Assembly: GCA_963845285.1 (NCBI GenBank)
Contig: CAWJRO010000016.1
Span: forward strand, 53,908-117,907
Length of the DNA stretch: 64,000 bases
Direction: 5' to 3'
Source of the DNA: an uncultured Methanobacteriaceae archaeon
Lineage (GTDB): Archaea > Methanobacteriota > Methanobacteria > Methanobacteriales > Methanobacteriaceae
This document shows positions 9,362 through 56,648 of the stretch, piece by piece (position 1 is the first letter of the stretch; each line of letters begins with the position of its first letter). The translations under genes were made by a program, and so were the position numbers. The notes below the pieces were generated by a model. The model saw only the letters and a list, made by a program, of their open reading frames with translations, searched no databases and was not told the origin of the DNA.

Positions 9362-10720
9362 GGCACTGTCAAAAACTTGGGGGTTGGGTGTTAAACAGTT
9401 TTTTCTGGTTTTGAATTTCTTTTCTAATGTTTATTCGTGACATTGCACCTGTTTTAATCTTCATTAACCTCTTAACACTTTTAGGAAAGGTTTTTTGAAA
9501 GCTATTCTCTATTCTGTTTGAAGTTCGTTCAATATTTCCATCTTCCAAGAATGCAAAGAAGGTTTTAAAATAAGGCACCAAAGAATCACAGATAATTGAT
9601 TGAATAACCTCTGAATAATCACTAATTTTACTTAAAATTTCGTTAAATTTCTTTCTAGCATTTTTAAAAGATTTACTCTCAAATAAACTGAATAATTCTA
9701 GTTTTTCTTTCCGTATTTTCTTTATTTCTTCTCTATTTAACTTATTTTCTCGGATATGTTTCTTTATGATTTTGTTAAAGTTTTTAAGTGTGTGAAAATA
9801 GCACCATTGGTGTTTAAACCCTAATTTTTCAATAATTGGTTTATATTTCTCATCTAAATCTGTAGTTATGGCAATTTTATTTTTATTCCTCGTATTTTGC
9901 CATAAAAACTCTTGTATATTCTTAGAATTCTCTTTAGAGTATATTTCATCAGCAACAATAATATCCTGTTTACTGTCGAATAAAGTGAATCTGTAATTCC
10001 ACACACCTTTAATTTTAACCCACTCCACATCAAAAATGTAATATCCTGAATAACGGTTTTTAGACTCGTTTTTATGGTTTTTATATCCCAGTATCCAGTT
10101 TTCAATTGTTTGTTGTGAAATATTGACTCCTGTGTCTTTTTTAACTTTATAAGCAATACTTCGCACTGATCCAAAGAATAAACCCACTAATTCAATACAT
10201 CTACTCTTAAAATCATGCGTGAAATTGCTATTATCCTCAACAACTTCCGAAATATCCGTATTGAATTTTTTACCACATTTTTTACATTTATAACTTTGAA
10301 TTTCTGTTTTAACAACGCCTTTATCATAAAAATAAAGTGTTCTTTCGTTAACTCCATTTTTAATCACAAATTTACTGAAACACTCCGGACAAAAAGGTTT
10401 AAACATCTCAATATGGAAAATATTCTTTTTAAACCATTTATGTAACGTTCTAGATACCTTATAATCATTTGGAAGTGATTTTAATTGGTTTTCAACATAT
10501 TTTGACAAATCTTCACAAAAGTAGGAAAGTTTATAACCTTGATCAAACAAACCATTAATTGGAGCAAGTGTTTTTCTTTTTAGCATAGAAAATACTATGC
10601 TCCCTCTTATTATAAAAGTTTTTAGGTTTTTGTTTTAGAAAATAATGGGTTTTAACAGGAATAGAAAAAATTGTTTATCGAAACACAAATTTCAAAACCC
10701 CCCAAGTTTTTGACAGTGTC
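9362..10720 (-). mobile_element. IS6-family insertion sequence with 8-bp target-site duplication
   Basis: Ends are GGCACTGTCAAAAACTTGGGGG (9362) and CCCCCAAGTTTTTGACAGTGTC (ends 10720), a ~22-bp TIR starting with the IS26-like GGCACTGT. The flanking direct repeat ATTTTATT (9354-9361 and 10721-10728) is an 8-bp TSD. Confidence 0.8.
9369..10586 (-). CDS. IS6-family DDE transposase with N-terminal zinc-finger extension
   Basis: The core motif D-x-E-W-V-K-I-K-G-x-W-x-Y (FDVEWVKIKGVWNYRF) matches the IS6 DETYVKIKGxWxYLYRAID signature. CxxC...CxxC zinc ribbon in the N-terminus. 405 aa. Confidence 0.75.
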   Translation of the reverse strand: MLKRKTLAPINGLFDQGYKLSYFCEDLSKYVENQLKSLPNDYKVSRTLHKWFKKNIFHIEMFKPFCPECFSKFVIKNGVNERTLYFYDKGVVKTEIQSYKCKKCGKKFNTDISEVVEDNSNFTHDFKSRCIELVGLFFGSVRSIAYKVKKDTGVNISQQTIENWILGYKNHKNESKNRYSGYYIFDVEWVKIKGVWNYRFTLFDSKQDIIVADEIYSKENSKNIQEFLWQNTRNKNKIAITTDLDEKYKPIIEKLGFKHQWCYFHTLKNFNKIIKKHIRENKLNREEIKKIRKEKLELFSLFESKSFKNARKKFNEILSKISDYSEVIQSIICDSLVPYFKTFFAFLEDGNIERTSNRIENSFQKTFPKSVKRLMKIKTGAMSRINIRKEIQNQKKLFNTQPPSF

Positions 10721-13128: not shown

Positions 13129-16100
13129 ATGAATAAAACAAGAAAAGGTTTAATTTTTATGGGTTTTCTCATGTTATTGATCCTTGTCATGGGGCCTGTT
13201 TCGGCGGTTAGTTTGAATAGTAGTGATATGGCCTTGGCTTCTTCAGGTATTAAAAATTATACTGAAGCAAATGGTAATATCCCAAGTTATGTGGACGTTA
13301 ATGGTAAAAATAGTACAACACCTTCTTTTTTAAAAAGTTTAACCACATATACAGTGGAACTTAATTCAGGCTCAACTGCACCAGTAGATATAGCTACAGG
13401 TGTGAATACGGCTCCTAATCCTTCTGGATCGACAACAGGTAAAATTTATAAGGACGAATATGTTGACATGGCTAGCCGTGCTAGTAATTTTATAACTACA
13501 AATGGATATGCTCCAAATTATTCCAGAAGCAGCCTTGGAAATATACGTTATGAATCATTGGTCTATGCCTATTCAAAGATAATAAATTATTATGCCCTGA
13601 ACGGAGCCTTACCTAATTATGTAACAGTAGTTTGCTATTCCGGTACAAGTTCAACAGGTATAACCTTAGATAACATTCCACCTACTATAACCTGTGACCT
13701 TGCTCCAGGTACATATGACAATTTGAAAAATGTGACTTTAACAGCATCAGATAACATTGATATTAATCCTATAGTTTACTACAGCTCGGACAATGGTACA
13801 ACATGGAGTAACCAGGTTAAAACTGTTACATTAAATCTTAAATCAGGGTTAACCAATTTAAAGTACTATGCACAAGATGCATCAGGCAATATAGGTACAA
13901 CACAAACAGCAGTTTATACAATCAATTCAAACACAACCCCACCAACAACCCTCACAAATGAAGATTTACAGGATTTAGCAGGATCTGTGCAGTCCTACGT
14001 AGAAACAGTTCACCAGCTACCCGGCAACATGACCACATCAAATACAACAGTTAACATGTCCCAATTTTTAGAACTTGCAGCTACAGCAGTTACTAACATC
14101 AACAACAACGTAACTACATCAATCTCATTAGAGAACTATTATCCGGCGTCTAATCCCTTAGAAACCATAAAAAGCAATGGAAATCTTAATAAAACAGATT
14201 ATATAAATCTTGCAAGCAGTGTTAAAACTTTTATGGATTCTAATGGACGAGCACCAGATTACCAGACAATTAATTTGGGAAACATAAGATATGAATCATT
14301 AATATATACTTTCGCCCAGATTTTAAACTCCTACAAAGTAGCAAAGGTCTTACCAAATTTTGTTACAATCAGGCCTTGGACAACCATTGCAAACAACAGC
14401 ACCGTGTTTGTAACCATGGATCAGATAAGAAATGCAGCTGATACAGTACAATCTTACGTAGAAACCAATCATCAACTACCAGACCATGTAGTTATCTCTG
14501 AATCTGATGTCAGTATGCCACAATTCCTGAAACTCGAAACAACATACTTAACAAATGCCAATGACAACCTTTACCAATCTATTGTTCTGCAAAATTATGG
14601 TACAGCTTCCAACCCCTACGAAAGTATCACAGGCGGAAATCTTAACAAAACAGATTATTTGAGCGCTGCAAGTGCTTTAAACACATTTATGGATACTAAT
14701 GGATTTGCACCAAATTATAAAACAAGTATACGAGGTTATATCCGCTATGAATCCCTGGTTTACATGTACGCTGAAATAATTAACTCAGCAAGCGAAAATA
14801 CATGTTTACCCAACTATATTACCCTCACGCCATGGACAACTGTTACAAACACGAACACCGTATTTTTAACCATGAACCAAATAAAAACAGCATCATCATC
14901 TCTGAAACTCTATGTAGAATCCCATCATGCACTCCCAGCAAATGTAAACATTTCTGGAAGGCTAATAAGCACACCTCAATTCTTGAAACTTGAAATCTTA
15001 TCATTAAGAAATATTTACTCAAGATTGTACCAATCCATTGTTCTTGAAAGTTATAACGCAGCTTCTAATCCTTCTGAAACAGTAACAAGCGGAAAGATCA
15101 ACTATGAAAACTACATGACTGTTGCAGACAATATTGATTCTTTTATGAACTCCAATGGTCAGGCACCAAACTACGCACAAACTTCACAAGGTCAAATGCG
15201 TTTTGAATCCTTAGTTTACATGTACGCCCAGATCTTGAACTATTACAACATGAACAAAGAACTTCCAATTTATTTGACTGTTGATCCGTGGAGTGTTGTT
15301 TCAAATTCGAACACAGTAACATTCAACATAGATCAGATAATCAGTGGAGCCGAAACCGTAAAAACTTATGTGGAAACCAATCATGCACTTCCAAGCAGTA
15401 TAACTGTATCAGGAACCACTTTAAGCATGCCACAGTTTCTGAGACTTGCAACCACAACGCTACACAATATAAACAAAGATTACGTAGGGCAGATCGTCCT
15501 ACAAAATTATAACTTGCCAACAGACACATCAGAAACCCTCACAGGCGGAAATTTCAACAAAACAGAATATTTAGATCTTGCAATGAAAGTTGAGTACTTC
15601 ATGTACAACAATGGGCGAGCACCCAACTTCCAAAATAGTACTCTTGGAAACATACGCTACCAATCATTAATCTACATGTACAGTCAAATTTTAAGCTCTT
15701 ACAAAGCAAATAATTACACACTACCCGAATTTATCACAATAAAACCATGGACAACCGTTTCAAACACAAACACAGTGTTCTTAAACACAGAACAATTAGA
15801 AAACGCAACAAAAACTTTGAAACAATATGTAGAAACCAATCACACACTTCCAAGTAATGTAACAGTTTCAGGAGTTCAAGTAACCATGCCACAGTTTTTA
15901 GAACTTCTAAATCAAGCTGTGGTAAATATAAACGGAAAGTTAAATGCAACAATTATTCTGGGAAACTACAATACAGCTTCCAACCCATCAGAAACAGTAA
16001 CAGGAGGAAATCTTAACACTACAACTTACATCAACCTTGCAAACGATATAATCAAATCCATGAATTCCAATGGTAAAGCACCTGATTATCAGACAACCAG

Positions 16101-19100
16101 TATTGGAAACATACGTTTTGAATCTTTGGTCTACACTTATTCCTTAATATTAGTCTACTACAATGAAAATGGAAATTTACCTGAAAATATCACCGTAACT
16201 CCATGGTCAACCATATCCAATACAAACACAAGCTTTTTCACAGTAAAACAGTTAGAAGATGCAGCAAAAACAGTACAAAATTATGTGGAAACTAACCATC
16301 AATTACCAAACACTGTTACAATCTCTGGAACTAATGTTAACATGTCTGAGTTCCTACAGATGGCAACTGCAGCAGTTTTAAACATAGACGATTCTTTATA
16401 CACATCAATTGCGCTTAAAAATTCAAGTATAGCTTCCAACCCCTCAGAAACCATCACAAAACAAGGAAACATTAACCAATCAGATTACACAAACTTGGCA
16501 AGCAACATAATCAGTTATATGAACTCTAATGGAAAAGCACCCGATTATCAAACAACTAACATTGGAAATATTAGATATGAAACTCTTGTTTACATGTACA
16601 GTCAGATATTAAGTTCTTACAATGCAACAAGTACACTACCGCAGTTTGTCACTGTAAATCAATGGACTGTTGTTTCAAATTCAAGCACGGTGTTTGTAAC
16701 AGCAGACGAGATAAAAAATGCATCTGAAACTCTCAAACAATATGTGGAAACCAATCATCAACTTCCAAGCAGCGTCAACATCTCAGGAAGACAAATAACA
16801 GTGCCACAGTTCCTTAAACTCTCAACTAACTCAGTTATAAACATTGAAAGCTACCTGAATACCTCAATAATTTTAGGCAATGTTGGAGCACCAAACAGTA
16901 ATTCAACAGAAAATATAACAATCGGAACAATAGATAACGACGAATTCGTGGACATAGCAACCACAATAAACACATATATAAATTCCAACGGAACGGTACC
17001 AAACAATGTTTCAAACACCAGTTTAGGAAGCAATATAGGCTATGAATCCCTTGTTTACATGTTTGCTAAGATCATGACATATTATAATGCAACAGAACAT
17101 GCCCCAGATAAGGTTTCGGTTGTGCCATGGATTGCAATGTCCAATCCAAATGGAACCTTCAACTTCAGAACCCATGAAACATACAATAGCATACAAACAG
17201 CTTTAGATGACGCAGACACAGTAAGCGGTGACACAATATGGCTAGAAAAAAATAACTACTCAGAAAACGTAGTAATAAACAAAAAAATTACCATAAAACC
17301 CCTATCAGGAAACGTAACAATCCAAGCTTTAAACCTTAACCTACCCATCTTCACAATAAATGAAGGTGGAAACGGCACAACAATACAGGACCTCATCATA
17401 AACGGTTCCACAAACAACATTGCCATATATATCAACAGCTCCACAGCCAACCAGATCTTGGGAAACAACATAACAAACAGCAGTAATGGCATATACTTGT
17501 ACAACTCTACAGAAACCGTAATATCCGGAAACAACATATTAAACAATCTAAACGGCGTACTCATCACTACAGGATCTGAAAATGAGGTATCCAGCAACAA
17601 AATAACCTCAAACAACTTTGCAGGAATCAAAATCCAAAATTCTACTAATAACAAAATTTACAGTAACAACTTATCCAATAACCAAGACGGAATCCGTCTA
17701 GAAAGCTCTTCAGCAGAGATTCACTTCAACAGCATAGTGGGAAACAGCAGATACAGATTATACAGTGAAAGTAACAGTACAGTTAACGCAACCAACAACT
17801 GGTGGGGCTCTAATAATCCAAATACATCCTTAAATAATCCAACTGATATTTACAATGCTGGAGGAACCGTAAACTACAACCCATGGTTAGTACTTTCTAT
17901 AAACGGACTCACAGATCGCTCAGACCGCAACAGCACATATTACAACTACATTATAACTGCAGACGTAACCCACAACAACCAGGGAAACGACACATCGCCA
18001 GATGGCAGTATACCTGATGATACACCAATCAACTTTAACTCAACCTTGGGAACACTTAACAGCACAGGATCCACCAAAAAAGGTAAAGTAGAACTCAAAC
18101 TTACCAACACAACAGCAGGAACAGCAGATGTTTCAGCAACCATCAATAACCAAACAGTTGCCACAACAATCAACGTAACAAACGTTAACGTACTGGGAGT
18201 GTACAACACCAGAACTCACGAAAGCTTCGCCACCATACAAGCAGCTATAGATAATGTTGACACCCATGACGGGGACATTTTAACATTAAACGAAGGAAAG
18301 TACACAGAAAATGTTGCTGTTAACAAGAAACTCACCATACAACCAGTTACAGGAGCGAACGTAACAGTTAATGCAAAAGACTCAGATAAAAGCGTTTTCG
18401 TAATAAACAACGAAGGAAGCGGATCAACAATACAAGGACTCAACATAATCAGCTCTGGAGACTCATACGGCATATCCTTAAGCCATTCATATAACAACAA
18501 TATCAACAACAACACCACATCTAACGGTAACAGGGGAATTTACGTATACACATCAGGAAACAACATCATAACAGAAAACATCATAAAAGAGGGTTACTAT
18601 GGAATAGTTCTCTACAACTCAACTAACAACAACTTATCAGGAAACACCGTGAAATACAATGAAAATGGAATATACCTTTTTAACTCCAATTACAACACAA
18701 TAAATGGAAATACAATATCTGACAATTATTATGGAAGCTACTTTTACCATTCCAATAACAACAAAATAAGTGAAAACAAATTAAAAGGTAACTGGGTAGG
18801 TATTTACCTTTATGATACCCACAACAACAGCGTAACTGGAAACAACCTCACAGACAACGGGGCTGGAATCACCTATTATAACTCTCTCAGCACCACAATC
18901 TCCGGAAACAATTTCACAAACAACTGGCTTACAGATACATCAATCATAGATTCTGGTAAAATGGTGATGGCCACTACCACTTACAGTTGCGGACCTGCAG
19001 CCCTAGCAACAATCCTAAAAAGCTTGGGAATTTACACCACAGAAGCTGAAATCGCCAAATTAGCAGGAACAGACGAAACAGGGACCAGTCTCTACGGACT

Positions 19101-19911
19101 GAAAACAGCAGCACAAAATAAGGGAACAACCGCAATAGGAGCAAAATTAACCATAGATCAACTTAAACCCAATTACATTGTAGTTCTAACCATAAATAAT
19201 GTCAAACACTTCGAAGTTGTACAGAACATAACTAACACCACAATTTACCTCTTCGACCCAAACCTTGGAAACATAGAAATGTCAATAACAAAATTCAATG
19301 AGATCTACACAGGAGTAGCACTCCTAATCAATGAACAACCACCAGCAAATACCACAACATTAACTGATGATGAAATGAAGAACATCAAAGGAAACTGGCA
19401 TTATATAACAATTAGAAATTCTTATTGGGTACCGGGTTATTGTTATATAACCTGGAAAAGAGTAACGGGTAGTTTTCTTGTACCATACGTCTACGTAACA
19501 TGGGTGCCAACTTACAACTGGGGTCCAATCCATTTAGGATATTATGCAGCTCATATAGGTTGGTATAGGGTAACCTATGGATTTTCAATACCAATAGTTC
19601 ACTACGTACCTGGTCACAGAGCATATTACTATACTTACATAAAAGTTCCGGATTATAATGACGTACCTCAAGTCAAGCAGTCTTATAAATGGGAAGGAAC
19701 AGCTATAGTCAAAAAACGTATTTACTATAGTAAATACATAATTGGAGGAAGTATAGGAATTTATGGTACTTTATTGGCCCCGTTAGCTGGTAAAGGCATA
19801 GTTGGTCTAGGTGGAGGTGCTTTTGGAATTGATGGACTTTGGACAGGTTTAAATGAATATGCATCACATTTAAATGAAATTGGCTCACAAGGATGGATAG
19901 ATCCAAAATAA
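13129..19911 (+). CDS. giant adhesin-like surface protein: signal peptide, ~9 pseudomurein-binding-type repeats, parallel beta-helix repeats, C39-like cysteine peptidase domain
   Basis: 2260 aa with an N-terminal signal peptide. About nine ~150-aa repeats (…QSYVETNHQLP…MPQFL…ASNPSET…GNIRYESLVYMY…), typical of Methanobacteriales adhesin-like proteins. Between 17.2 and 18.9 kb there are PbH1-type NNxxxxNxxGI(Y/V)L repeats. A C39-like block has SCGPAALATIL...Cys and HFEVV His. A Tyr/Trp-rich C-terminus follows. An upstream purine-rich GAAGGTGA motif and TATA-like box are present. Confidence 0.85.
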   Translation: MNKTRKGLIFMGFLMLLILVMGPVSAVSLNSSDMALASSGIKNYTEANGNIPSYVDVNGKNSTTPSFLKSLTTYTVELNSGSTAPVDIATGVNTAPNPSGSTTGKIYKDEYVDMASRASNFITTNGYAPNYSRSSLGNIRYESLVYAYSKIINYYALNGALPNYVTVVCYSGTSSTGITLDNIPPTITCDLAPGTYDNLKNVTLTASDNIDINPIVYYSSDNGTTWSNQVKTVTLNLKSGLTNLKYYAQDASGNIGTTQTAVYTINSNTTPPTTLTNEDLQDLAGSVQSYVETVHQLPGNMTTSNTTVNMSQFLELAATAVTNINNNVTTSISLENYYPASNPLETIKSNGNLNKTDYINLASSVKTFMDSNGRAPDYQTINLGNIRYESLIYTFAQILNSYKVAKVLPNFVTIRPWTTIANNSTVFVTMDQIRNAADTVQSYVETNHQLPDHVVISESDVSMPQFLKLETTYLTNANDNLYQSIVLQNYGTASNPYESITGGNLNKTDYLSAASALNTFMDTNGFAPNYKTSIRGYIRYESLVYMYAEIINSASENTCLPNYITLTPWTTVTNTNTVFLTMNQIKTASSSLKLYVESHHALPANVNISGRLISTPQFLKLEILSLRNIYSRLYQSIVLESYNAASNPSETVTSGKINYENYMTVADNIDSFMNSNGQAPNYAQTSQGQMRFESLVYMYAQILNYYNMNKELPIYLTVDPWSVVSNSNTVTFNIDQIISGAETVKTYVETNHALPSSITVSGTTLSMPQFLRLATTTLHNINKDYVGQIVLQNYNLPTDTSETLTGGNFNKTEYLDLAMKVEYFMYNNGRAPNFQNSTLGNIRYQSLIYMYSQILSSYKANNYTLPEFITIKPWTTVSNTNTVFLNTEQLENATKTLKQYVETNHTLPSNVTVSGVQVTMPQFLELLNQAVVNINGKLNATIILGNYNTASNPSETVTGGNLNTTTYINLANDIIKSMNSNGKAPDYQTTSIGNIRFESLVYTYSLILVYYNENGNLPENITVTPWSTISNTNTSFFTVKQLEDAAKTVQNYVETNHQLPNTVTISGTNVNMSEFLQMATAAVLNIDDSLYTSIALKNSSIASNPSETITKQGNINQSDYTNLASNIISYMNSNGKAPDYQTTNIGNIRYETLVYMYSQILSSYNATSTLPQFVTVNQWTVVSNSSTVFVTADEIKNASETLKQYVETNHQLPSSVNISGRQITVPQFLKLSTNSVINIESYLNTSIILGNVGAPNSNSTENITIGTIDNDEFVDIATTINTYINSNGTVPNNVSNTSLGSNIGYESLVYMFAKIMTYYNATEHAPDKVSVVPWIAMSNPNGTFNFRTHETYNSIQTALDDADTVSGDTIWLEKNNYSENVVINKKITIKPLSGNVTIQALNLNLPIFTINEGGNGTTIQDLIINGSTNNIAIYINSSTANQILGNNITNSSNGIYLYNSTETVISGNNILNNLNGVLITTGSENEVSSNKITSNNFAGIKIQNSTNNKIYSNNLSNNQDGIRLESSSAEIHFNSIVGNSRYRLYSESNSTVNATNNWWGSNNPNTSLNNPTDIYNAGGTVNYNPWLVLSINGLTDRSDRNSTYYNYIITADVTHNNQGNDTSPDGSIPDDTPINFNSTLGTLNSTGSTKKGKVELKLTNTTAGTADVSATINNQTVATTINVTNVNVLGVYNTRTHESFATIQAAIDNVDTHDGDILTLNEGKYTENVAVNKKLTIQPVTGANVTVNAKDSDKSVFVINNEGSGSTIQGLNIISSGDSYGISLSHSYNNNINNNTTSNGNRGIYVYTSGNNIITENIIKEGYYGIVLYNSTNNNLSGNTVKYNENGIYLFNSNYNTINGNTISDNYYGSYFYHSNNNKISENKLKGNWVGIYLYDTHNNSVTGNNLTDNGAGITYYNSLSTTISGNNFTNNWLTDTSIIDSGKMVMATTTYSCGPAALATILKSLGIYTTEAEIAKLAGTDETGTSLYGLKTAAQNKGTTAIGAKLTIDQLKPNYIVVLTINNVKHFEVVQNITNTTIYLFDPNLGNIEMSITKFNEIYTGVALLINEQPPANTTTLTDDEMKNIKGNWHYITIRNSYWVPGYCYITWKRVTGSFLVPYVYVTWVPTYNWGPIHLGYYAAHIGWYRVTYGFSIPIVHYVPGHRAYYYTYIKVPDYNDVPQVKQSYKWEGTAIVKKRIYYSKYIIGGSIGIYGTLLAPLAGKGIVGLGGGAFGIDGLWTGLNEYASHLNEIGSQGWIDPK

Positions 19912-22800: not shown

Positions 22801-22910
22801 TTCCATATTTCTTGGTTATTCTTATTTTTAAAAAATCCACTTTAAAAAATCAGTTCTCATTGATAATATAGGAATATAAAACTTTAATTGTAAATTTCTT
22901 GAAAATTTAA

Positions 22911-24671
22911 GAGGCTGTCTCATGATTGACTTTTTTTTGGATTTTCTTTTCTGATTTTTTTCCTTTTAAGGGTTATATTTATATTTAAGGTGTTACTATA
23001 TTTTATTTAGAGATTTATAGTTTTTTGGTGGTGTTTTTTATGGCTTTGAGAGAAGATAGGATTGGTCAGACTTGGTTGGTGCCTAGGCGTGTTATGGATT
23101 TTATTCCGGAAAATCATATTTGTTATTTTATTGCTAATTTGGTGGAAGAGTTAGATTTTAAAAAAATAGACCAGAGATACAGGTGCACTAAGGGTAAGGC
23201 AGCTTATTCTCGCCGAATGTTATTGAGAGTGGTTATTATGGCTTCGGTTGATGGTGTGTTTTCATCTAGGCGGGTTGCAAGGCTTGCGGAGGAAAATGTG
23301 ATTTATATGTATCTTTCAGGTATGGATAAGCCGGATTTCCATACAATTTGCAGATTTAAAATCGAATGCAGCAAACAAATTGAAGAAGCGTTTGAAATGA
23401 CTGTGAATGTTGCTAAAAATATGGATATGGTTCAATTGAACCATATCGCAATAGATGGTACTAAAATCAAAGCTAACGCTTCCCCAGCTAATCTAATTAA
23501 TCAAAAAGAAATACATACAGTTCGTCAGATATTAAAAAAAGGAATAAAAACCGACAAGAAAGAAAACAAAATTTACGGCAATAAAAGAGGTGACGAAATA
23601 CCACCAGAACTAACCAACCGTAAAAAAGTCCACGAAATAATCCAAAAACTAAAAAACCAAACCAAAACCACTAATGAAAATAATGCTCCTAAAGAGGAGA
23701 ATAAGCTGCATAGATCTTCAGTTAAGCTTCTGGAACGGGCCTGTTCCGGTAGTCCGGAAAAGGATCGTGTTTTGAAAAAATTGGATCATGCTGAAAGGGA
23801 GTTAGAAAAGACACCACAAAAGACTGTTAGTTTAACAGACCCTGAATCACGGTGGATGATGAATAAAAAGAATCGAATGGAACTTTCATATAATATGCAA
23901 ATCGCAGTGGATTATGATTCAGGAATCATACTCGCCAGCACCATAACACAAGACCCTACAGACCACCACCAACTAATACCACAAATAGAACAAATACAAG
24001 AAACAATAGGACCCTTACCCAATTATACAAAGATTAGCGCAGATAACGGGTATTTTACACAAACAAATCTACAATATCTAGAAGAAAATGGATTAGATGG
24101 TTACATACCTAACAGAAAACAGGCACATAAACATAAAAACAAGTTAAAAAAGGATAAACTATTTTCCAAGTACAATTTCAAATATAATCATGTCGAAGAC
24201 ATTTATATTTGTCCAAATAACAGAAAATTAACTTATAAAAAGACATATGAGTATAATAACACTTGTATGCGCCAATATTATTGTAATGATTGTTTAAAAT
24301 GTTCATATCAGACATTATGTGCTGGTAAGAATCGTTTTAGGATTATAACTGATTATGGTGGTGTTTTATCAAAGCGTATGGCTTTGAAAATGGAAACAAA
24401 TCAAGGCAAGGAAGAGTTTGGTAAACGAAAACAGACCGTTGAATGGCCATTTGGGAATATAAAAGAGAATTTAAGATACACAGAGTTCCTAACACGCGGC
24501 ATGAACGGAATAAAAACAGAAAAAAACCTAATTAACATCTCACATAACATAAAAAGAATCTATAATCATAATAATTCTAAAATAAATAGGCAAAATCAAA
24601 TAAATACCTGAAAAAAGAGGATTTTTTATAAAAACTTAAAAAATTAAAAACTTAATTCATGAGACAACCTC
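22911..24671 (+). mobile_element. IS element copy B (IS5/IS1182-like, 1761 bp)
   Basis: Left TIR GAGGCTGTCTCATGATTGAC at 22911. Right end TCATGAGACAACCTC at 24671. Identical to copy C over its whole length. Confidence 0.85.
23025..24611 (+). CDS. DDE transposase (DUF772 N-terminal domain, IS5/IS1182-like), copy B
   Basis: 528 aa. [15 protein letters not shown]...[10 protein letters not shown]... with C-terminal DDE and CxxC region. Confidence 0.85.
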
Positions 24672-24723
24672 TTTAAAAATAAAAAAATATTAAAAATAGA
24701 AAAATGTAGGTATTAAAGAATAC

Positions 24724-36061: not shown

Positions 36062-36151
36062 TTTAGTTTCTATGAGCCTGGTTTCTATTTTTTTGATACT
36101 TCTTTCCAATTTTAGAAAAAAGGAATTATTTCACTGTTTTATCTAGAAAAA

Positions 36152-37912
36152 GAGGCTGTCTCATGATTGACTTTTTTTTGGATTTTCTTTTCTGATTTTT
36201 TTCCTTTTAAGGGTTATATTTATATTTAAGGTGTTACTATATTTTATTTAGAGATTTATAGTTTTTTGGTGGTGTTTTTTATGGCTTTGAGAGAAGATAG
36301 GATTGGTCAGACTTGGTTGGTGCCTAGGCGTGTTATGGATTTTATTCCGGAAAATCATATTTGTTATTTTATTGCTAATTTGGTGGAAGAGTTAGATTTT
36401 AAAAAAATAGACCAGAGATACAGGTGCACTAAGGGTAAGGCAGCTTATTCTCGCCGAATGTTATTGAGAGTGGTTATTATGGCTTCGGTTGATGGTGTGT
36501 TTTCATCTAGGCGGGTTGCAAGGCTTGCGGAGGAAAATGTGATTTATATGTATCTTTCAGGTATGGATAAGCCGGATTTCCATACAATTTGCAGATTTAA
36601 AATCGAATGCAGCAAACAAATTGAAGAAGCGTTTGAAATGACTGTGAATGTTGCTAAAAATATGGATATGGTTCAATTGAACCATATCGCAATAGATGGT
36701 ACTAAAATCAAAGCTAACGCTTCCCCAGCTAATCTAATTAATCAAAAAGAAATACATACAGTTCGTCAGATATTAAAAAAAGGAATAAAAACCGACAAGA
36801 AAGAAAACAAAATTTACGGCAATAAAAGAGGTGACGAAATACCACCAGAACTAACCAACCGTAAAAAAGTCCACGAAATAATCCAAAAACTAAAAAACCA
36901 AACCAAAACCACTAATGAAAATAATGCTCCTAAAGAGGAGAATAAGCTGCATAGATCTTCAGTTAAGCTTCTGGAACGGGCCTGTTCCGGTAGTCCGGAA
37001 AAGGATCGTGTTTTGAAAAAATTGGATCATGCTGAAAGGGAGTTAGAAAAGACACCACAAAAGACTGTTAGTTTAACAGACCCTGAATCACGGTGGATGA
37101 TGAATAAAAAGAATCGAATGGAACTTTCATATAATATGCAAATCGCAGTGGATTATGATTCAGGAATCATACTCGCCAGCACCATAACACAAGACCCTAC
37201 AGACCACCACCAACTAATACCACAAATAGAACAAATACAAGAAACAATAGGACCCTTACCCAATTATACAAAGATTAGCGCAGATAACGGGTATTTTACA
37301 CAAACAAATCTACAATATCTAGAAGAAAATGGATTAGATGGTTACATACCTAACAGAAAACAGGCACATAAACATAAAAACAAGTTAAAAAAGGATAAAC
37401 TATTTTCCAAGTACAATTTCAAATATAATCATGTCGAAGACATTTATATTTGTCCAAATAACAGAAAATTAACTTATAAAAAGACATATGAGTATAATAA
37501 CACTTGTATGCGCCAATATTATTGTAATGATTGTTTAAAATGTTCATATCAGACATTATGTGCTGGTAAGAATCGTTTTAGGATTATAACTGATTATGGT
37601 GGTGTTTTATCAAAGCGTATGGCTTTGAAAATGGAAACAAATCAAGGCAAGGAAGAGTTTGGTAAACGAAAACAGACCGTTGAATGGCCATTTGGGAATA
37701 TAAAAGAGAATTTAAGATACACAGAGTTCCTAACACGCGGCATGAACGGAATAAAAACAGAAAAAAACCTAATTAACATCTCACATAACATAAAAAGAAT
37801 CTATAATCATAATAATTCTAAAATAAATAGGCAAAATCAAATAAATACCTGAAAAAAGAGGATTTTTTATAAAAACTTAAAAAATTAAAAACTTAATTCA
37901 TGAGACAACCTC
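36152..37912 (+). mobile_element. IS element copy C (identical to copy B)
   Basis: Same TIRs (GAGGCTGTCTCATGA at 36152, TCATGAGACAACCTC ending 37912). The 1761 bp are identical to 22911-24671, including the upstream leader. Flanked by (G)AAAAA on both sides. Confidence 0.85.
36266..37852 (+). CDS. DDE transposase (IS5/IS1182-like), copy C
   Basis: 528 aa, identical to the ORF at 23025-24611. Confidence 0.85.
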
Positions 37913-38016
37913 GAAAAAATAATAAAAAAATAATAATTTTTATATGTTCTAATCATCAAAATTATCTACTATAAAAACATGGGGTTATCGGGACCATCTT
38001 TGATGGGGGGGATTGA

Positions 38017-52413: not shown

Positions 52414-52607
52414 ACCAAATCCTCCTACATGTTCGATCTGCTCTATTTATTGAAACTTGGCCGCACTTAAATGATTTTATGAGATATAAATGTTAAGAAG
52501 ATACTATGAATGGATTTCTTCATTAATTTCTGATTCTGAACTCCTGATTCCGAGCTCTTCTCAAACTACATATTATAATATGAGCTTTTTAATTAAAATA
52601 TAATACT

Positions 52608-52961
52608 ATGAAAATAATTTACATCGAATGTGATGAAAAATCTCTGGACTCGATCCAGCCATTGTGGGATAAATTGAGACAGCACCACCACAAAAAATCA
52701 GAGAACTTTCGTGAACATTACAAGGATTTTGATTTCCAGGAGCGAAAGGAAACCCTGCTTAAAAAGTTTGCAGGGGGTTCTTTAAGGGTTGACCTTGCAA
52801 AAGATATTTCTGAAGACCGGGTTGTTGGTTACTGTGTGAGCTCAATATTCTCTGAAATGGAAGGAGAAGTTGATTTTATCTACGTTGAAGAAGAGTATAG
52901 ATCAAATGGTATATGGGGCTCTTTCCATGCTGTTTTTTCTCGATCATTCTTATCTTCCTAG
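52608..52961 (+). pseudogene. GNAT-family N-acetyltransferase, C-terminally truncated (motif B region missing)
   Basis: 117 aa. The ORF ends right after a degenerate motif A (VEEEYRSNGIWG). The next 3.5 kb are the inserted minus-strand cassette. Confidence 0.55.
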
Positions 52962-53044: not shown

Positions 53045-54409
53045 TTAAAAATACATAGCGCACTTTTTTCTATTCTTTCTACTTCTTGTTTTTTTAATTT
53101 GGGATAAGGATCTATTTAAAGGAGATAACTGCACATCATTGAAATCTTTATTAAGTCTAAGATATTGTATATTTGATAAATATTTAGGAGGTTCAACATC
53201 ATCAATAACAATTGGAATAATATTCATTTTTCCATCTAAAGCCCTAATTATGGCTTGTTCACTTTCTTTCCTAACCCATTCAGACTTTATGGAGTTTTCT
53301 GATGAAACAATAATCATGCAATCCGAATTCTCAATTGCTTCAGAAATTTTTTGGGTTAATATAGTGCCAGATTTTATTTGTTCCTCTGCTAACCATGGAG
53401 AATAACCATTTTGTCTTAAAAATTCTGCAATACGCCTCAATAATTTTATATCTTGGAAAGAACCACTAATAAATACTTTTATTTTGTCTTGTTCACTGTC
53501 GGGATATGGCTTTATCTCATCTTCTTCCCTATTAACTTGTATAGTAAGTTCTCGTAAAAATTCAGTTACTTGTGTATGATTTATGTCCTTTTTGTATTCT
53601 AATACTTCTAATCTTTTATCTAAAGCAAATCTACGTCTTTCTATAGGATTCATCGTTCCAGAAGGTAATAAAATATAATGTTTTTCTAATGTCCTTGAGT
53701 AAATCGACGCTAATTTATCGAGAATATTATTTAAATCTGGATCATCACCACTAAAGCCTACAAAGATAACTGTGTGAGTAGAGAACAATGTTTCAATAAA
53801 CTGCTTATACCCCGGAGTTCTAAAAAGTAAATCTTGGTAATCTCTACTTCCAAGTACAATAGTAGAAGGTCTATCAAAATGACCATGTAACTTAAATATA
53901 AAAAAATCGTCTCGCTGTAAAATCTGATGTCTTTCGACTAAATCTTCCTGTGTGAATACCATTGGGAGCCTTCCTTCTTCCTCAATTGAATAAGCTCCTT
54001 CAATTAATGAATCATAATTAGTCGTTAAAATAGCCCTGAAAGGAATATGTGGTAATAAACGATGTGTTTCAGATGGAAGAACTAATTTATCCCTAAAAAT
54101 TGAATTAAGGAATTTACCCATGATAGAAACTCCTACCCTATCCTGAAGTTCTTGGGCGGCCATGATAAAATTGCCTTTTTTAATCATATCCCTAATAAAT
54201 TCAGGATCATCCCAAAACTCAACTTTTTTTAAAATTGCATAATCCAACAATTCAGTTAAAAATTTTTCCCAATTTGGTAACCGTCGCATATTTGATCTAG
54301 TTACTTTAGAAGAGAGACCAGAACCAACAAAAAGAATACATTTATTTGATTTCAACGAATCAATTATTTCTGGAGGAATTATGCCTTCAAATTTAGATTC
54401 TTTTTCCAT
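53045..54409 (-). CDS. SIR2-like (DHS-like NAD-binding, SIR2_2 type) - TIR domain fusion protein; predicted NAD+-degrading defence effector
   Basis: 454 aa. N-terminal domain: ILFVGSGLS, TTNYDSLIE (conserved Asn), FKLHGHFDRP (conserved His) and IFVGFSGDDPDL match the ThsA/DSR-type SIR2 signature. C-terminal ~140 aa: KVFISGSF..., ...AIENSDCMIIVSSENSIKSEWVRKESEQAI is a TIR domain. Confidence 0.75.
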   Translation of the reverse strand: MEKESKFEGIIPPEIIDSLKSNKCILFVGSGLSSKVTRSNMRRLPNWEKFLTELLDYAILKKVEFWDDPEFIRDMIKKGNFIMAAQELQDRVGVSIMGKFLNSIFRDKLVLPSETHRLLPHIPFRAILTTNYDSLIEGAYSIEEEGRLPMVFTQEDLVERHQILQRDDFFIFKLHGHFDRPSTIVLGSRDYQDLLFRTPGYKQFIETLFSTHTVIFVGFSGDDPDLNNILDKLASIYSRTLEKHYILLPSGTMNPIERRRFALDKRLEVLEYKKDINHTQVTEFLRELTIQVNREEDEIKPYPDSEQDKIKVFISGSFQDIKLLRRIAEFLRQNGYSPWLAEEQIKSGTILTQKISEAIENSDCMIIVSSENSIKSEWVRKESEQAIIRALDGKMNIIPIVIDDVEPPKYLSNIQYLRLNKDFNDVQLSPLNRSLSQIKKTRSRKNRKKCAMYF

Positions 54410-54448
54410 TTAAATCCCTTTACACATATTTAAAGATAAATTAATAAT

Positions 54449-56356
54449 TTAAATTTTTTCCCAATTCTTATAAATGGTTTCATTTTCATTTTTTTCCATT
54501 ACATTTATTGAAGCACAATTTTTATTAATTATCATATACCCCGTGGCTTCATGGACTTTGTTAATAGTTGGAGATACAACATTAGAGTTATATTCAGTAA
54601 TATGTTCAATTTTTATTTTATAAGTTCCAACTAATTTTTCAACAGTTCCTTCAATCTTTATAGATCTATATTTAGTAAGTTCTTCAGAATTTGAATTAGA
54701 AATAATCCATTCTTCAGAGTCTTTGGACTTTATCATTTTTTGATTGACTTTAAAAGTGTTTTCATCTTCATTATATCTTAAATTCAAATTTCCCCAAGGA
54801 GTTTCCCAATTGCCTTCAAGTTTATCTTTAATTACATGATTATTATCTAAAAAAGCTTCCGAATATTTAACTCGGAATTCTCTTTCATTTTCAGCTTCAA
54901 CTAATATTTCTCTTTCTTTATTATCTTCATTTTCTAATATTTGTTTTAGTCTATTTTTAGCATTACCAATATTTCCATGAACATCTACTCCTTCATTAGA
55001 AAGTTCATTGGCATTATCAATTTCATTCTTTGCATCTTGAATAAATCCTTTATCTAAATATTTCTGAGCAATATTAGCCATTGCAAGAGTTACATTATGT
55101 TCTTTTGCTTTAAAATAACTTTTTATACTCTTTCCGGGAATATCAAGAGCACCATATTGGACACCTAAGTTGTTTAATCCCATAGGTGATTCTATTGCAT
55201 TTGTAAGCTTTTTATAGTGGAGTAAAGATAATTTTTGATGATTTTTGTGGCTATATTGATAAGCTAAATTAAATCTTAAATCTGTATCCGACGGATCTAT
55301 ATCTAGTGCCATTTCTCCATAAATGAAAAATTTATCTAAATCATTACATCTTTTTGACACTCTTGCTAGCATAGAGAGAATTTTAGCTTTATTTTCTTCA
55401 AATATATCTTTATATAAAATTTCGGAAATCAGATCAATAGCTTCTTTACATTTACCATCAAAAATTAAGCACGAAGCAGCTTTATTGTAACATTCAATAA
55501 TTAATTCTTTCTCTTTTTCATCGTTAATATCGTATAAATCTTTCATAATTAAAAATTGCTCTTTAGATTTCTTATATTCTCCCATATCATAATATCTATT
55601 AGCCAAATGTGATATAACTGCAGGATTATCTTTATTAATATTAACATGCCTTATTAATTTTTTAAATGCAGTTGAATCACCTATTTCATGGCAACATCTT
55701 AAAACAAATGCATTTATAATGGGTTTTTCATCATTAGAAAGAATAGGTTCAAGTTCGTCAGTGTATATCTCTTGAACTTTCTCATAATCCTTTTCATTCT
55801 TTATTGCATTAAATAACTTCTCAAAAGCTTCATCTTTTCCCTCTTTGATATTATTTATCGTTCCAGTTTCTTCGGCAATATCCTCCTTTAATTCTATATC
55901 TCCGGAAATTGACTCCAATTGTTCTTCTTTTAATGAATGGATTATTTCATTTAGTTTAATAAATGCTTCATCTAAAGAGTTTCTATTGAAATAAACCAAC
56001 TCCAAATCGCCTTGAAGTTCTGGAAATTTGTAAATTGTCTTTTTTTCTTCTTTCTCGACTAATAATATTAATCCTTTTTTATTCCCTATTGCAAACCCCG
56101 ATTCCTGAATAACCCAATTAGATGTAGTATAATATTCTTTATCCCCAGTTAAACACTCAATTTTTTTATCAAATGTAAATATGCCTATGAATATATCATT
56201 ATTCAAAATTCTTTCCTTGACTTTACTAGCGATAGATTTATTTTGAGCTTTTTCACCAGTTTGATATTCTATATCTGTTGTACCTATGAATTTGAGTATT
56301 TTATTAATAACTTCCATATCTCCATCAGCAAAACTATGCCCTATAAACGCTTTCAA
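54449..56356 (-). CDS. TIR-like (ThsB/DUF1863-like flavodoxin fold) - TPR-like repeats - C-terminal beta-rich domain protein
   Basis: 635 aa. N-terminal ~105 aa have KAFIGHSFADGD...IFIGIFT...SNWVIQESGFAIG..ILLVEK, the TIR-like pattern phi-F-I-x-x-S...S-x-W-V-x-x-E. The middle has helical TPR-like repeats (YYDMGEYKKSKEQF, AYQYSHKNHQKLSLLHY). The C-terminal 150 aa have no recognisable family. The gene is 39 bp from the SIR2-TIR gene. Confidence 0.6.
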   Translation of the reverse strand: MKAFIGHSFADGDMEVINKILKFIGTTDIEYQTGEKAQNKSIASKVKERILNNDIFIGIFTFDKKIECLTGDKEYYTTSNWVIQESGFAIGNKKGLILLVEKEEKKTIYKFPELQGDLELVYFNRNSLDEAFIKLNEIIHSLKEEQLESISGDIELKEDIAEETGTINNIKEGKDEAFEKLFNAIKNEKDYEKVQEIYTDELEPILSNDEKPIINAFVLRCCHEIGDSTAFKKLIRHVNINKDNPAVISHLANRYYDMGEYKKSKEQFLIMKDLYDINDEKEKELIIECYNKAASCLIFDGKCKEAIDLISEILYKDIFEENKAKILSMLARVSKRCNDLDKFFIYGEMALDIDPSDTDLRFNLAYQYSHKNHQKLSLLHYKKLTNAIESPMGLNNLGVQYGALDIPGKSIKSYFKAKEHNVTLAMANIAQKYLDKGFIQDAKNEIDNANELSNEGVDVHGNIGNAKNRLKQILENEDNKEREILVEAENEREFRVKYSEAFLDNNHVIKDKLEGNWETPWGNLNLRYNEDENTFKVNQKMIKSKDSEEWIISNSNSEELTKYRSIKIEGTVEKLVGTYKIKIEHITEYNSNVVSPTINKVHEATGYMIINKNCASINVMEKNENETIYKNWEKI

Positions 56357-56466
56357 TAAAATTCCTCCAATAAACCTAAATATGACATCTATTTTTATTA
56401 TTAATAAAATATTACAATCAAATGGATATATAAAATATTATTTGAAGGAATTATTATGGAAATAGT

Positions 56467-56648
56467 TTACATTGAAAGAAAATGAAAAAAGACTTGGACT
56501 TGATTCAGTTTTGTGGATAAATTGAGACAGCACCACACAAAATCAGAGAACTTTTGTGACTATTATAAAGATTTTCCAAAAGGGAAGAAAACCTGCTTAA
56601 AAATTTGCAGGAGTTTATTTAAAGGGTTGACCTTGTAGAAAAAGTCAT
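56467..56648 (+). repeat. degenerate direct repeat of the 5' end of the GNAT gene (right boundary of inserted cassette)
   Basis: About 80% identical to 52620-52805 (…GGATAAATTGAGACAGCACCAC…TCAGAGAACTTT…CTGCTTAAAAA…TTTAAAGGGTTGACCTTG…), but with indels that destroy the reading frame. Confidence 0.7.

Follow-up and report, generated by a model that had tools for sequence, protein, structure and literature searches.

Modules that deplete nicotinamide adenine dinucleotide (NAD+) by means of SIR2 and TIR domains hold a central place in antiviral immunity, in organisms that range from bacteria to plants and animals, and several described systems resemble a two-gene cassette at positions 53045-56356 of the DNA analysed here, a 64,000-nucleotide stretch from an uncultured Methanobacteriaceae archaeon (the window). 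The downstream gene of the cassette encodes a SIR2 domain fused to a C-terminal TIR domain (SIR2-TIR), and the upstream gene a TIR-like domain followed by a TPR solenoid, a long helix and a beta-barrel (TIR-TPR-barrel). An earlier reading of the DNA letters had proposed that the pair forms a single conserved, Thoeris-like two-gene system (the original prediction). Our leading explanation, to which we give about an even chance of being right, is that the cassette is a defence islet of two autonomous single-protein genes, each of NADase type and acting through abortive infection, and not one two-gene system. Of its elements, the domain identities of the two proteins and the conservation of their catalytic residues are shown, as are the separate occurrence of the two families in other genomes and their location in defence islands.

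Type VIII Thoeris pairs ThsB with ThsI ('CMP hydrolase and TPR') and uses canonical cyclic ADP-ribose (cADPR) as its signal (preprint 10.64898/2025.12.03.692087); it is the same system as BcTir/BcTpr of Bacillus cereus, where the TPR region comes after a MilB-like N-terminal domain that carries E86 (preprint 10.1101/2023.05.26.542521). TIR-II of Escherichia coli, an experimentally validated defence, consists of a single TIR and TPR protein that is widespread and has no obligatory partner, about 30% of TIR-II systems carrying an ATPase domain (PMC11350192). On the sirtuin side, phylogeny places TIR among the extra domains (with Piwi, Macro, HEAT and TPR) of some SIR2_2 proteins, and ThsA, Avs5 and the FAM118 sirtuins have been reported to be activated by analogous formation of filaments (PMC12700824). 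Type VIII Thoeris is the closest two-gene analogue of the layout in the window, and TIR-II, by analogy, would be the closest functional analogue of, and the best precedent for, a stand-alone TIR-TPR-barrel.

Neither architecture was found catalogued in Pfam, PADLOC v2 or NCBIfam, the last two of which return partial single-domain matches only, or described in the papers searched, as had been predicted for the arrangement, and full-text literature searches returned no paper describing a SIR2-TIR fusion as a defence protein. Two sizeable families are unnamed in these libraries, the TIR-like/TPR/beta-barrel family, with about 1000 clusters at 50% identity, and the SIR2-TIR double-NADase fusion. 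Because both occur in archaea and bacteria among known defence genes, they are good candidates for new single-gene defence systems. Evidence that the neighbouring genes probably do not make up a single system also keeps a false new Thoeris type out of the catalogues.

Occurrence of the two families in other genomes

To compare neighbourhoods we used 20 TIR-TPR-barrel loci, 16 from species-representative genomes and 4 from further distinct contigs, with flanks of up to 8 kb searched by tblastn and hidden Markov models, and 11 SIR2-TIR contexts besides the window. Neither SIR2-TIR nor any other SIR2 or TIR gene was found in the flanks of TIR-TPR-barrel (0/20 loci), and no TIR-TPR-barrel gene was found in the other SIR2-TIR contexts (0/11). 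Both genes occur together on only one other contig, a Logan assembly of 3967 bp whose sequence is essentially that of the window, and two other Methanobacterium assemblies hold one gene each, at loci that are not syntenic with the window. Two separate one-gene defences are likely because each gene occurs elsewhere without the other, and the independence of the genes is also indicated by their different closest relatives, which stand at 68% identity for SIR2-TIR (Methanophagales-type) and at no more than 55% for TIR-TPR-barrel. With the pair never co-localised at the other loci of this sample, the proposal of a single conserved Thoeris-like two-gene system is not supported.

Full-length homologues of SIR2-TIR number more than 100, in archaea and bacteria, at 37-68% identity, the closest including Methanophagales proteins. 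Full-length homologues of TIR-TPR-barrel are 36-55% identical to it, and its family has 985 representatives (50%-identity clusters, E <= 1e-30), nearly all of 620-670 aa and matched from end to end. The plasmid collection gave only distant SIR2 matches to SIR2-TIR (<=30% identity) and no match to TIR-TPR-barrel, and the IMG/VR viral contigs gave only distant SIR2 matches to the former and no relative of the whole protein for the latter. A metagenome scan for SIR2-TIR, whose patterns were generic SIR2 motifs, returned only 4-5 close relatives among 80 loci. The TPR region of TIR-TPR-barrel (residues 168-518) matches a phage family of unknown function, phrog_31809, at 54.7 bits, and in Methanobacterium sp. 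fen_9 (locus L013, 7923-9853) the homologue is divided over two open reading frames (ORFs; 476 and 156 aa), probably a frameshift or pseudogene.

The neighbours of TIR-TPR-barrel vary from locus to locus; some are defence genes (Type ISP restriction enzyme, GmrSD, Abi_2) and others are housekeeping genes. SIR2-TIR is solitary, among housekeeping or toxin-antitoxin genes, at loci L018, L020, L150 and L154, and a relative of 553 aa with an extra C-terminal DUF3892 stands alone between NMT1-type genes in a metagenome-assembled genome of Methanobacterium paludis (L098, 8001-9662). Elsewhere SIR2-TIR adjoins defence genes, with a Shedu gene directly upstream at L019 and Abi_2, OLD, ApeA and MmeI at other loci. 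At L107 only a TPR_12 fragment lies upstream; the small ORFs upstream of P0130 at this locus were considered as a decayed TIR-TPR gene and rejected, as they show no tblastn similarity and the TPR_12 fragment is unrelated.

Housekeeping genes are the only neighbours at several loci, which speaks for a non-antiviral explanation, in which the genes would encode mobile NAD-dependent regulatory or metabolic enzymes, such as a protein deacylase or a nucleoside-processing enzyme; some database records also label relatives 'SIR2 family NAD-dependent protein deacylase'. We regard this explanation as very improbable, because the SIR2 domain belongs to the ThsA/DSR/KomC defence type and not to the canonical sirtuins, the spread over archaea and many bacterial phyla is patchy, known defence systems recur as neighbours, and the cassette is low in guanine plus cytosine (GC) and flanked by repeats.

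Architecture of the two proteins and comparison with known systems

The domains of SIR2-TIR are those of the original prediction. Pfam recognises SIR2_2 in the N-terminal part (115 bits) and TIR_2 (84.7 bits), TIR (49.3) and ThsB_TIR (26.6) in the C-terminal part, and the predicted GSG, TTNYD (N131) and LHGH (H175) motifs are present. A PDB profile search with the SIR2 domain returned ThsA (6lhx, E 3.7e-24), FAM118B and KomC, and with the TIR domain 7uxr, AbTIR and Cat1. The PADLOC ThsA1 profile matches at 105 bits over the SIR2 portion only (profile positions 12-306 of 478), in agreement with the predicted lack of SLOG; the Pfam and PADLOC profiles find no SLOG, Macro or other known TIR-signal receiver, and Pfam finds no recognisable sensor domain of the protein's own. 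No NCBIfam model scores above its cut-off, Dsr2 reaching 68.5 bits where 1400 are required.

The three SIR2 motifs and the TIR Glu (E382, in SxWxxxE) are invariant in a 27-member alignment of SIR2-TIR proteins. A wider alignment includes a Bacteroidota-type subfamily of the same length (P0179, P0182, P0186, P0203, P0216) in which N131 and H175 are kept and the TIR Trp and Glu are lost, the C-terminal domain being no longer recognised by Pfam. That N131 and H175 do not vary, not even in relatives without the TIR Glu, suggests that SIR2 is the effector and that the TIR-derived domain serves regulation or assembly; the SIR2 site is the enzymatic element that stays constant in the family, with a TIR-derived domain that can act non-catalytically.

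TIR-TPR-barrel begins MKAFIGHSF, identical to the start of its homologues. Its N-terminal domain matches PF10137 (CAP12/PycTIR-type TIR) at 24.1 bits, just below the cut-off of 24.7, and among 27 family members PF10137 is matched by 24 and TIR_2 by 7. When this domain was aligned by hhalign with the profile of the SIR2-TIR TIR domain, the probability was 95.4% (E 1.7e-8) and the SxWVxxE motifs were paired, E85 of TIR-TPR-barrel lying opposite E382 of SIR2-TIR. The prediction of a TIR-like domain in this gene was thus sound as to the fold, whereas its assignment to the ThsB/DUF1863 type was not, because PF10137 is the best match and places the domain closest to the CAP12/PycTIR type and not to DUF1863 or ThsB_TIR. 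A PDB sequence search with the N-terminal profile gave nothing significant, and the protein has no PADLOC match, to ThsB models or others, no NCBIfam match and no transmembrane segment.

An AlphaFold model of TIR-TPR-barrel, built from a 27-sequence alignment (predicted local distance difference test score, pLDDT, 86), bears out the TPR array and the beta-rich C-terminal domain that had been predicted. Between the two lies a long helix, with E477, E481, L485, E491 and R495 conserved, which is a possible coiled-coil or oligomerisation element. The barrel follows, its eight strands falling within residues 515-634 of the model. Its likeness to CBASS Cap15 is no better than its likeness to designed barrels and streptavidin, and is generic to the fold.

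With type I Thoeris the cassette shares a ThsA-type SIR2 domain with catalytic Asn and His, and a TIR-family domain in the neighbouring gene. It differs in that the SLOG/STALD receiver of ThsA for 3'cADPR, which defines that system, is absent and a TIR with an intact Glu occupies its place, in that TIR-TPR-barrel matches no PADLOC ThsB model, and in that the pairing is not conserved (0/20 and 0/11). DSR1/DSR2 and SpbK resemble SIR2-TIR in another way, as single proteins in which a NADase domain is joined to an activation-control region and abortive infection proceeds via NAD+ depletion. Weak Dsr1/Dsr2 matches extend across the SIR2 domain of SIR2-TIR, but this protein of 454 aa lacks the large C-terminal sensor of DSR1/DSR2 (~1000-1200 aa) and carries a second NADase-type domain instead.

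By architecture and occurrence only, TIR-TPR-barrel can be likened to TIR-II, each being one TIR and TPR protein and TIR-TPR-barrel being solitary in its loci; it differs from TIR-II in its CAP12/PycTIR-type domain, its extra barrel and its lack of an ATPase domain. The PDB entry 9m0n (824 aa, 'tetratricopeptide repeat protein', with an N-terminal TIR match) matches the TIR domain of SIR2-TIR by sequence, and neither it nor any other TIR-TPR structure is among the listed PDB profile matches of TIR-TPR-barrel. Unlike Pycsar PycTIR and CBASS Cap12, TIR-TPR-barrel has no cyclase or CD-NTase gene near it (0/20 loci), and in lacking both a transmembrane segment and a nearby CD-NTase it differs from Cap15 as well.

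Type VIII Thoeris is the two-gene system closest in layout. In TIR-TPR-barrel, a putative catalytic Glu (E85; E86 in BcTpr), in an N-terminal domain that may be of a similar glycosidase fold, is followed by TPR, and the gene stands beside one that bears a TIR. An E. coli IncP plasmid yielded a ThsI-ThsB pair, of which the ThsI has TPR-S (PF20308) at 64.5 bits. TIR-TPR-barrel was compared with this plasmid protein as a candidate type VIII ThsI and rejected, hhalign giving a probability of 1.4% and BLASTP nothing. It differs further in that its N-terminal domain is nearer to TIR (PF10137) than to MilB by sequence, in its added C-terminal helix and beta-barrel, in having no TPR-S match in Pfam at E<=1, and in that none of the 20 loci of its family has a TIR neighbour, the TIR neighbour in the window being itself fused to SIR2. 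The likeness to ThsI appears to be one of architecture and fold, not of family membership.

These comparisons bear directly on the possibility that the two genes are a functional Thoeris-like pair, in which the TIR of either SIR2-TIR or TIR-TPR-barrel would make an NAD+-derived signal upon infection (e.g. a cADPR isomer), with NAD+ depletion as the outcome. The operon-like layout within a shared cassette would suit such a pair, as would the example of ThsI/BcTpr, where the same layout (MilB-like domain, catalytic E86, then TPR) works with a neighbouring TIR gene via cADPR; PF10137-type TIRs are, in the Pfam description, typically signal-activated effectors, and all of the catalytic residues are intact. 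We nevertheless think a pair of this kind rather unlikely, given that the genes do not co-occur in the 20 and 11 other loci and both families are frequently solitary, that TIR-TPR-barrel has neither a TPR-S match nor detectable similarity to the plasmid ThsI, and that no SLOG, Macro or other known TIR-signal receiver is found. The receiver would have to be sought in the TPR/barrel of TIR-TPR-barrel or in the TIR of SIR2-TIR, replacing SLOG, and we give this placement the same rather low likelihood; the barrel, for its part, is no more similar to Cap15 than to designed barrels or streptavidin.

The plasmid pair itself (L155, 2276-5472; NZ_CP147111.1) adjoins TIR and DUF4231 genes, on opposite strands, and these may be a type VII-like pair. 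Its ThsI is annotated merely 'TRAFs-binding domain-containing protein'.

Separate or joint action of the two proteins

For two autonomous genes, the triggers, substrates and activation by assembly that we infer are as follows. TIR-TPR-barrel would be a self-contained sensor-effector, in which a protein or small molecule of viral origin is recognised by the TPR solenoid, the barrel or both; recognition would release or assemble the N-terminal TIR-like glycosidase (E85), which would then cleave NAD+ or a nucleotide. SIR2-TIR would be a second self-contained NADase, whose TIR-derived domain may drive or regulate oligomerisation and so switch on the ThsA-type SIR2 active site (N131/H175), a model that parallels the filament-activated ThsA, Avs5 and FAM118 sirtuins. 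In the close clade of SIR2-TIR, the TIR (E382) may also be catalytic. The fusion poses the question of what role a TIR plays where ThsA has a signal receiver, and the answer could show whether prokaryotic TIR domains serve as assembly or receiver modules.

Several points weigh against two autonomous genes. The genes lie on the same strand with a spacing of 39 bp and no oligo-T between them, in one low-GC, repeat-flanked cassette, an arrangement that is operon-like. In layout, with a putative glycosidase fold before TPR, TIR-TPR-barrel resembles ThsI, the effector of type VIII Thoeris, which works with a TIR gene. An extra TIR gene, moreover, is present in 4 of the 11 other SIR2-TIR contexts and in none of the 20 TIR-TPR-barrel loci (Fisher p = 0.010), which hints, in numbers too small to decide, that a TIR-bearing partner, not always of one kind, may often act together with SIR2-TIR. 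Given the small sample, the two genes may cooperate in this genome.

Of the four extra-TIR cases, two lie on the opposite strand and plainly belong to separate systems. In one (L109, 1686-4644, minus strand), a SPARTA system, made up of TIR-APAZ (461 aa) and a short prokaryotic Argonaute (pAgo; 526 aa; PADLOC pAgo_I 416 bits), is convergent with SIR2-TIR; the TIR gene beside P0132 had been considered as a SIR2-TIR partner and was rejected, being the TIR-APAZ of this system. Three NADase-type modules lie inside 5 kb at this locus. In the other (L021, 5732-6969, minus strand), a PycTIR/CAP12-type TIR (206 aa; PF10137 112 bits) precedes a second protein of 206 aa, which matches ThsA_Macro weakly (19.8 bits); this TIR and Macro-like pair, divergent from SIR2-TIR, may be of a type II Thoeris-like kind in minimal form.

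The remaining TIR genes are on the same strand as SIR2-TIR. A DUF1883-TIR gene lies 125 bp upstream of it at L099-L101, and at L110 a TIR-AbiTii gene overlaps its stop codon by 4 bp, in an island that also holds ApeA, HNH, kinase and MmeI genes. Both keep the SxW...E motif, catalytic-position Glu included, and all of the same-strand cases fall in the close SIR2-TIR clade (>=58% identity). DUF1883-TIR matches the PADLOC candidate PDC-S66 at 253 bits, the PDC-S series being read as single-gene. When only same-strand partners are counted, the difference is not significant (2/11 vs 0/20, p = 0.12).

From these loci one can construct a further explanation, in which SIR2-TIR is a shared effector, activated by heterotypic TIR-TIR assembly with interchangeable adjacent TIR sensors and without a diffusible messenger. 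Three different same-strand TIR partners stand at -4 to 125 bp (the window gene and those of relatives of 58-66% identity), these partners retain the SxW...E motif, no sensor domain is recognisable in SIR2-TIR itself, and the related subfamily keeps a TIR lacking the catalytic Glu, which therefore would have a non-catalytic role; the count of extra TIR genes against the control loci points the same way. We consider such assembly unlikely, since half of those extra genes belong to the opposite-strand SPARTA and PycTIR-type systems, the same-strand enrichment falls short of significance, DUF1883-TIR resembles a series read as single-gene, SIR2-TIR is solitary in at least 6 contexts, and the TIR-TPR-barrel family never needs such a partner. 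Two elaborations seem to us distinctly doubtful: that messenger-free co-assembly of TIRs is the equivalent in prokaryotes of cooperative TIR assembly as in TLR/MyD88, with TIR replacing the SLOG receiver of ThsA, and that the sensor would be TIR-TPR-barrel in this Methanobacterium and DUF1883-TIR or TIR-AbiTii in relatives. The partner question of SIR2-TIR is the most interesting thread to come out of the analysis, and two autonomous genes remain our preferred explanation.

The cassette, its borders and other features of the window

The cassette consists of a pair of long minus-strand ORFs with the predicted separation of 39 bp, 'gene 1' of the original prediction (SIR2-TIR) being the downstream one (Table 1). 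The spacer holds no T run of five or more and a T5 run is present after the SIR2-TIR stop, so that co-transcription of both genes is plausible. The element TTTAAATA lies in the spacer about 21 nt upstream of the SIR2-TIR ATG and could be an internal archaeal promoter. A scan for sigma-70 promoters and intrinsic terminators found promoters not enriched, such a scan being uninformative for an archaeon.

Table 1. Coordinates in the window of the two genes, their predicted domains and the flanking repeat copies
Feature	Position	Strand	Details
TIR-TPR-barrel gene (upstream)	54449..56356	-	635 aa; TTG start, GGAGG ribosome-binding site before TTG
N-terminal TIR-like N-glycosidase domain	55916..56356	-	residues 1-147, flavodoxin-like; invariant SNWVIQESG, putative catalytic E85 codon 56102-56104
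TPR solenoid	54992..55876	-	residues 161-455, ~18 helices; candidate sensor/scaffold
Long conserved helix	54848..54976	-	residues 461-503; motif KEKEIL.EAEKER.FRVKYSEAF; secondary structure from the model
C-terminal beta-barrel	54452..54829	-	residues 510-635; 8-stranded, up-and-down, calycin-like; candidate small-ligand/protein-binding module
Intergenic spacer	54410..54448	-	39 bp; read directly from sequence
SIR2-TIR gene (downstream)	53045..54409	-	454 aa, ATG start
SIR2 NADase domain, ThsA/FAM118/KomC type	53525..54370	-	residues ~14-295; N131 codon 54017-54019, H175 codon 53885-53887
C-terminal TIR domain	53090..53491	-	residues ~307-440; SEWVRKE motif; catalytic-position E382 codon 53264-53266
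GNAT acetyltransferase ORF, 3'-truncated; left copy of direct repeat	52604..52961	+	ORF 52608-52961; Acetyltransf_1 22 bits
Degenerate second GNAT 5' region; right copy of direct repeat	56452..56635	+	in-frame stops; small ORFs

At 27-31%, the GC content of the cassette is below the 38-41% of the flavodoxin, GNAT, Rieske and ABC genes that adjoin it. The direct repeat that brackets it aligns the right copy with 52604-52797 over 197 bp at 78% identity (E 1.5e-36), and in the left GNAT ORF the Acetyltransf_1 alignment spans profile positions 15-76 of 116. The prediction had described an insertion into a GNAT gene with flanking repeats; the repeats do flank the cassette, and on both sides they consist of a GNAT gene's 5' part, not of a split gene with a target-site duplication. 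Because the same part of GNAT is present on both flanks, these look like the product of recombination via a homologous GNAT segment and not of simple insertion with target duplication. Horizontal acquisition of the cassette, which had also been proposed, is supported by its composition and the flanking repeats. The host is a Methanobacterium, as the neighbouring ppk (polyphosphate kinase) shares 91% identity with its counterpart in Methanobacterium paludis, in keeping with the methanogen host of the prediction.

Elsewhere in the window, an IS1182-family element is present in two direct copies (22909-24693 and 36150-37936) of 1787 bp and 99.7% identity, both of which encode a transposase of 528 aa. 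The copies enclose about 11.5 kb, with the gene for a TrkH potassium transporter among its contents, in a layout like that of a composite transposon. A 405-aa ORF at 9369-10586 (minus strand) has weak matches to IS66, ISH6 and IS6 transposases, and a very long ORF of 2260 aa occupies 13129-19911 (plus strand).

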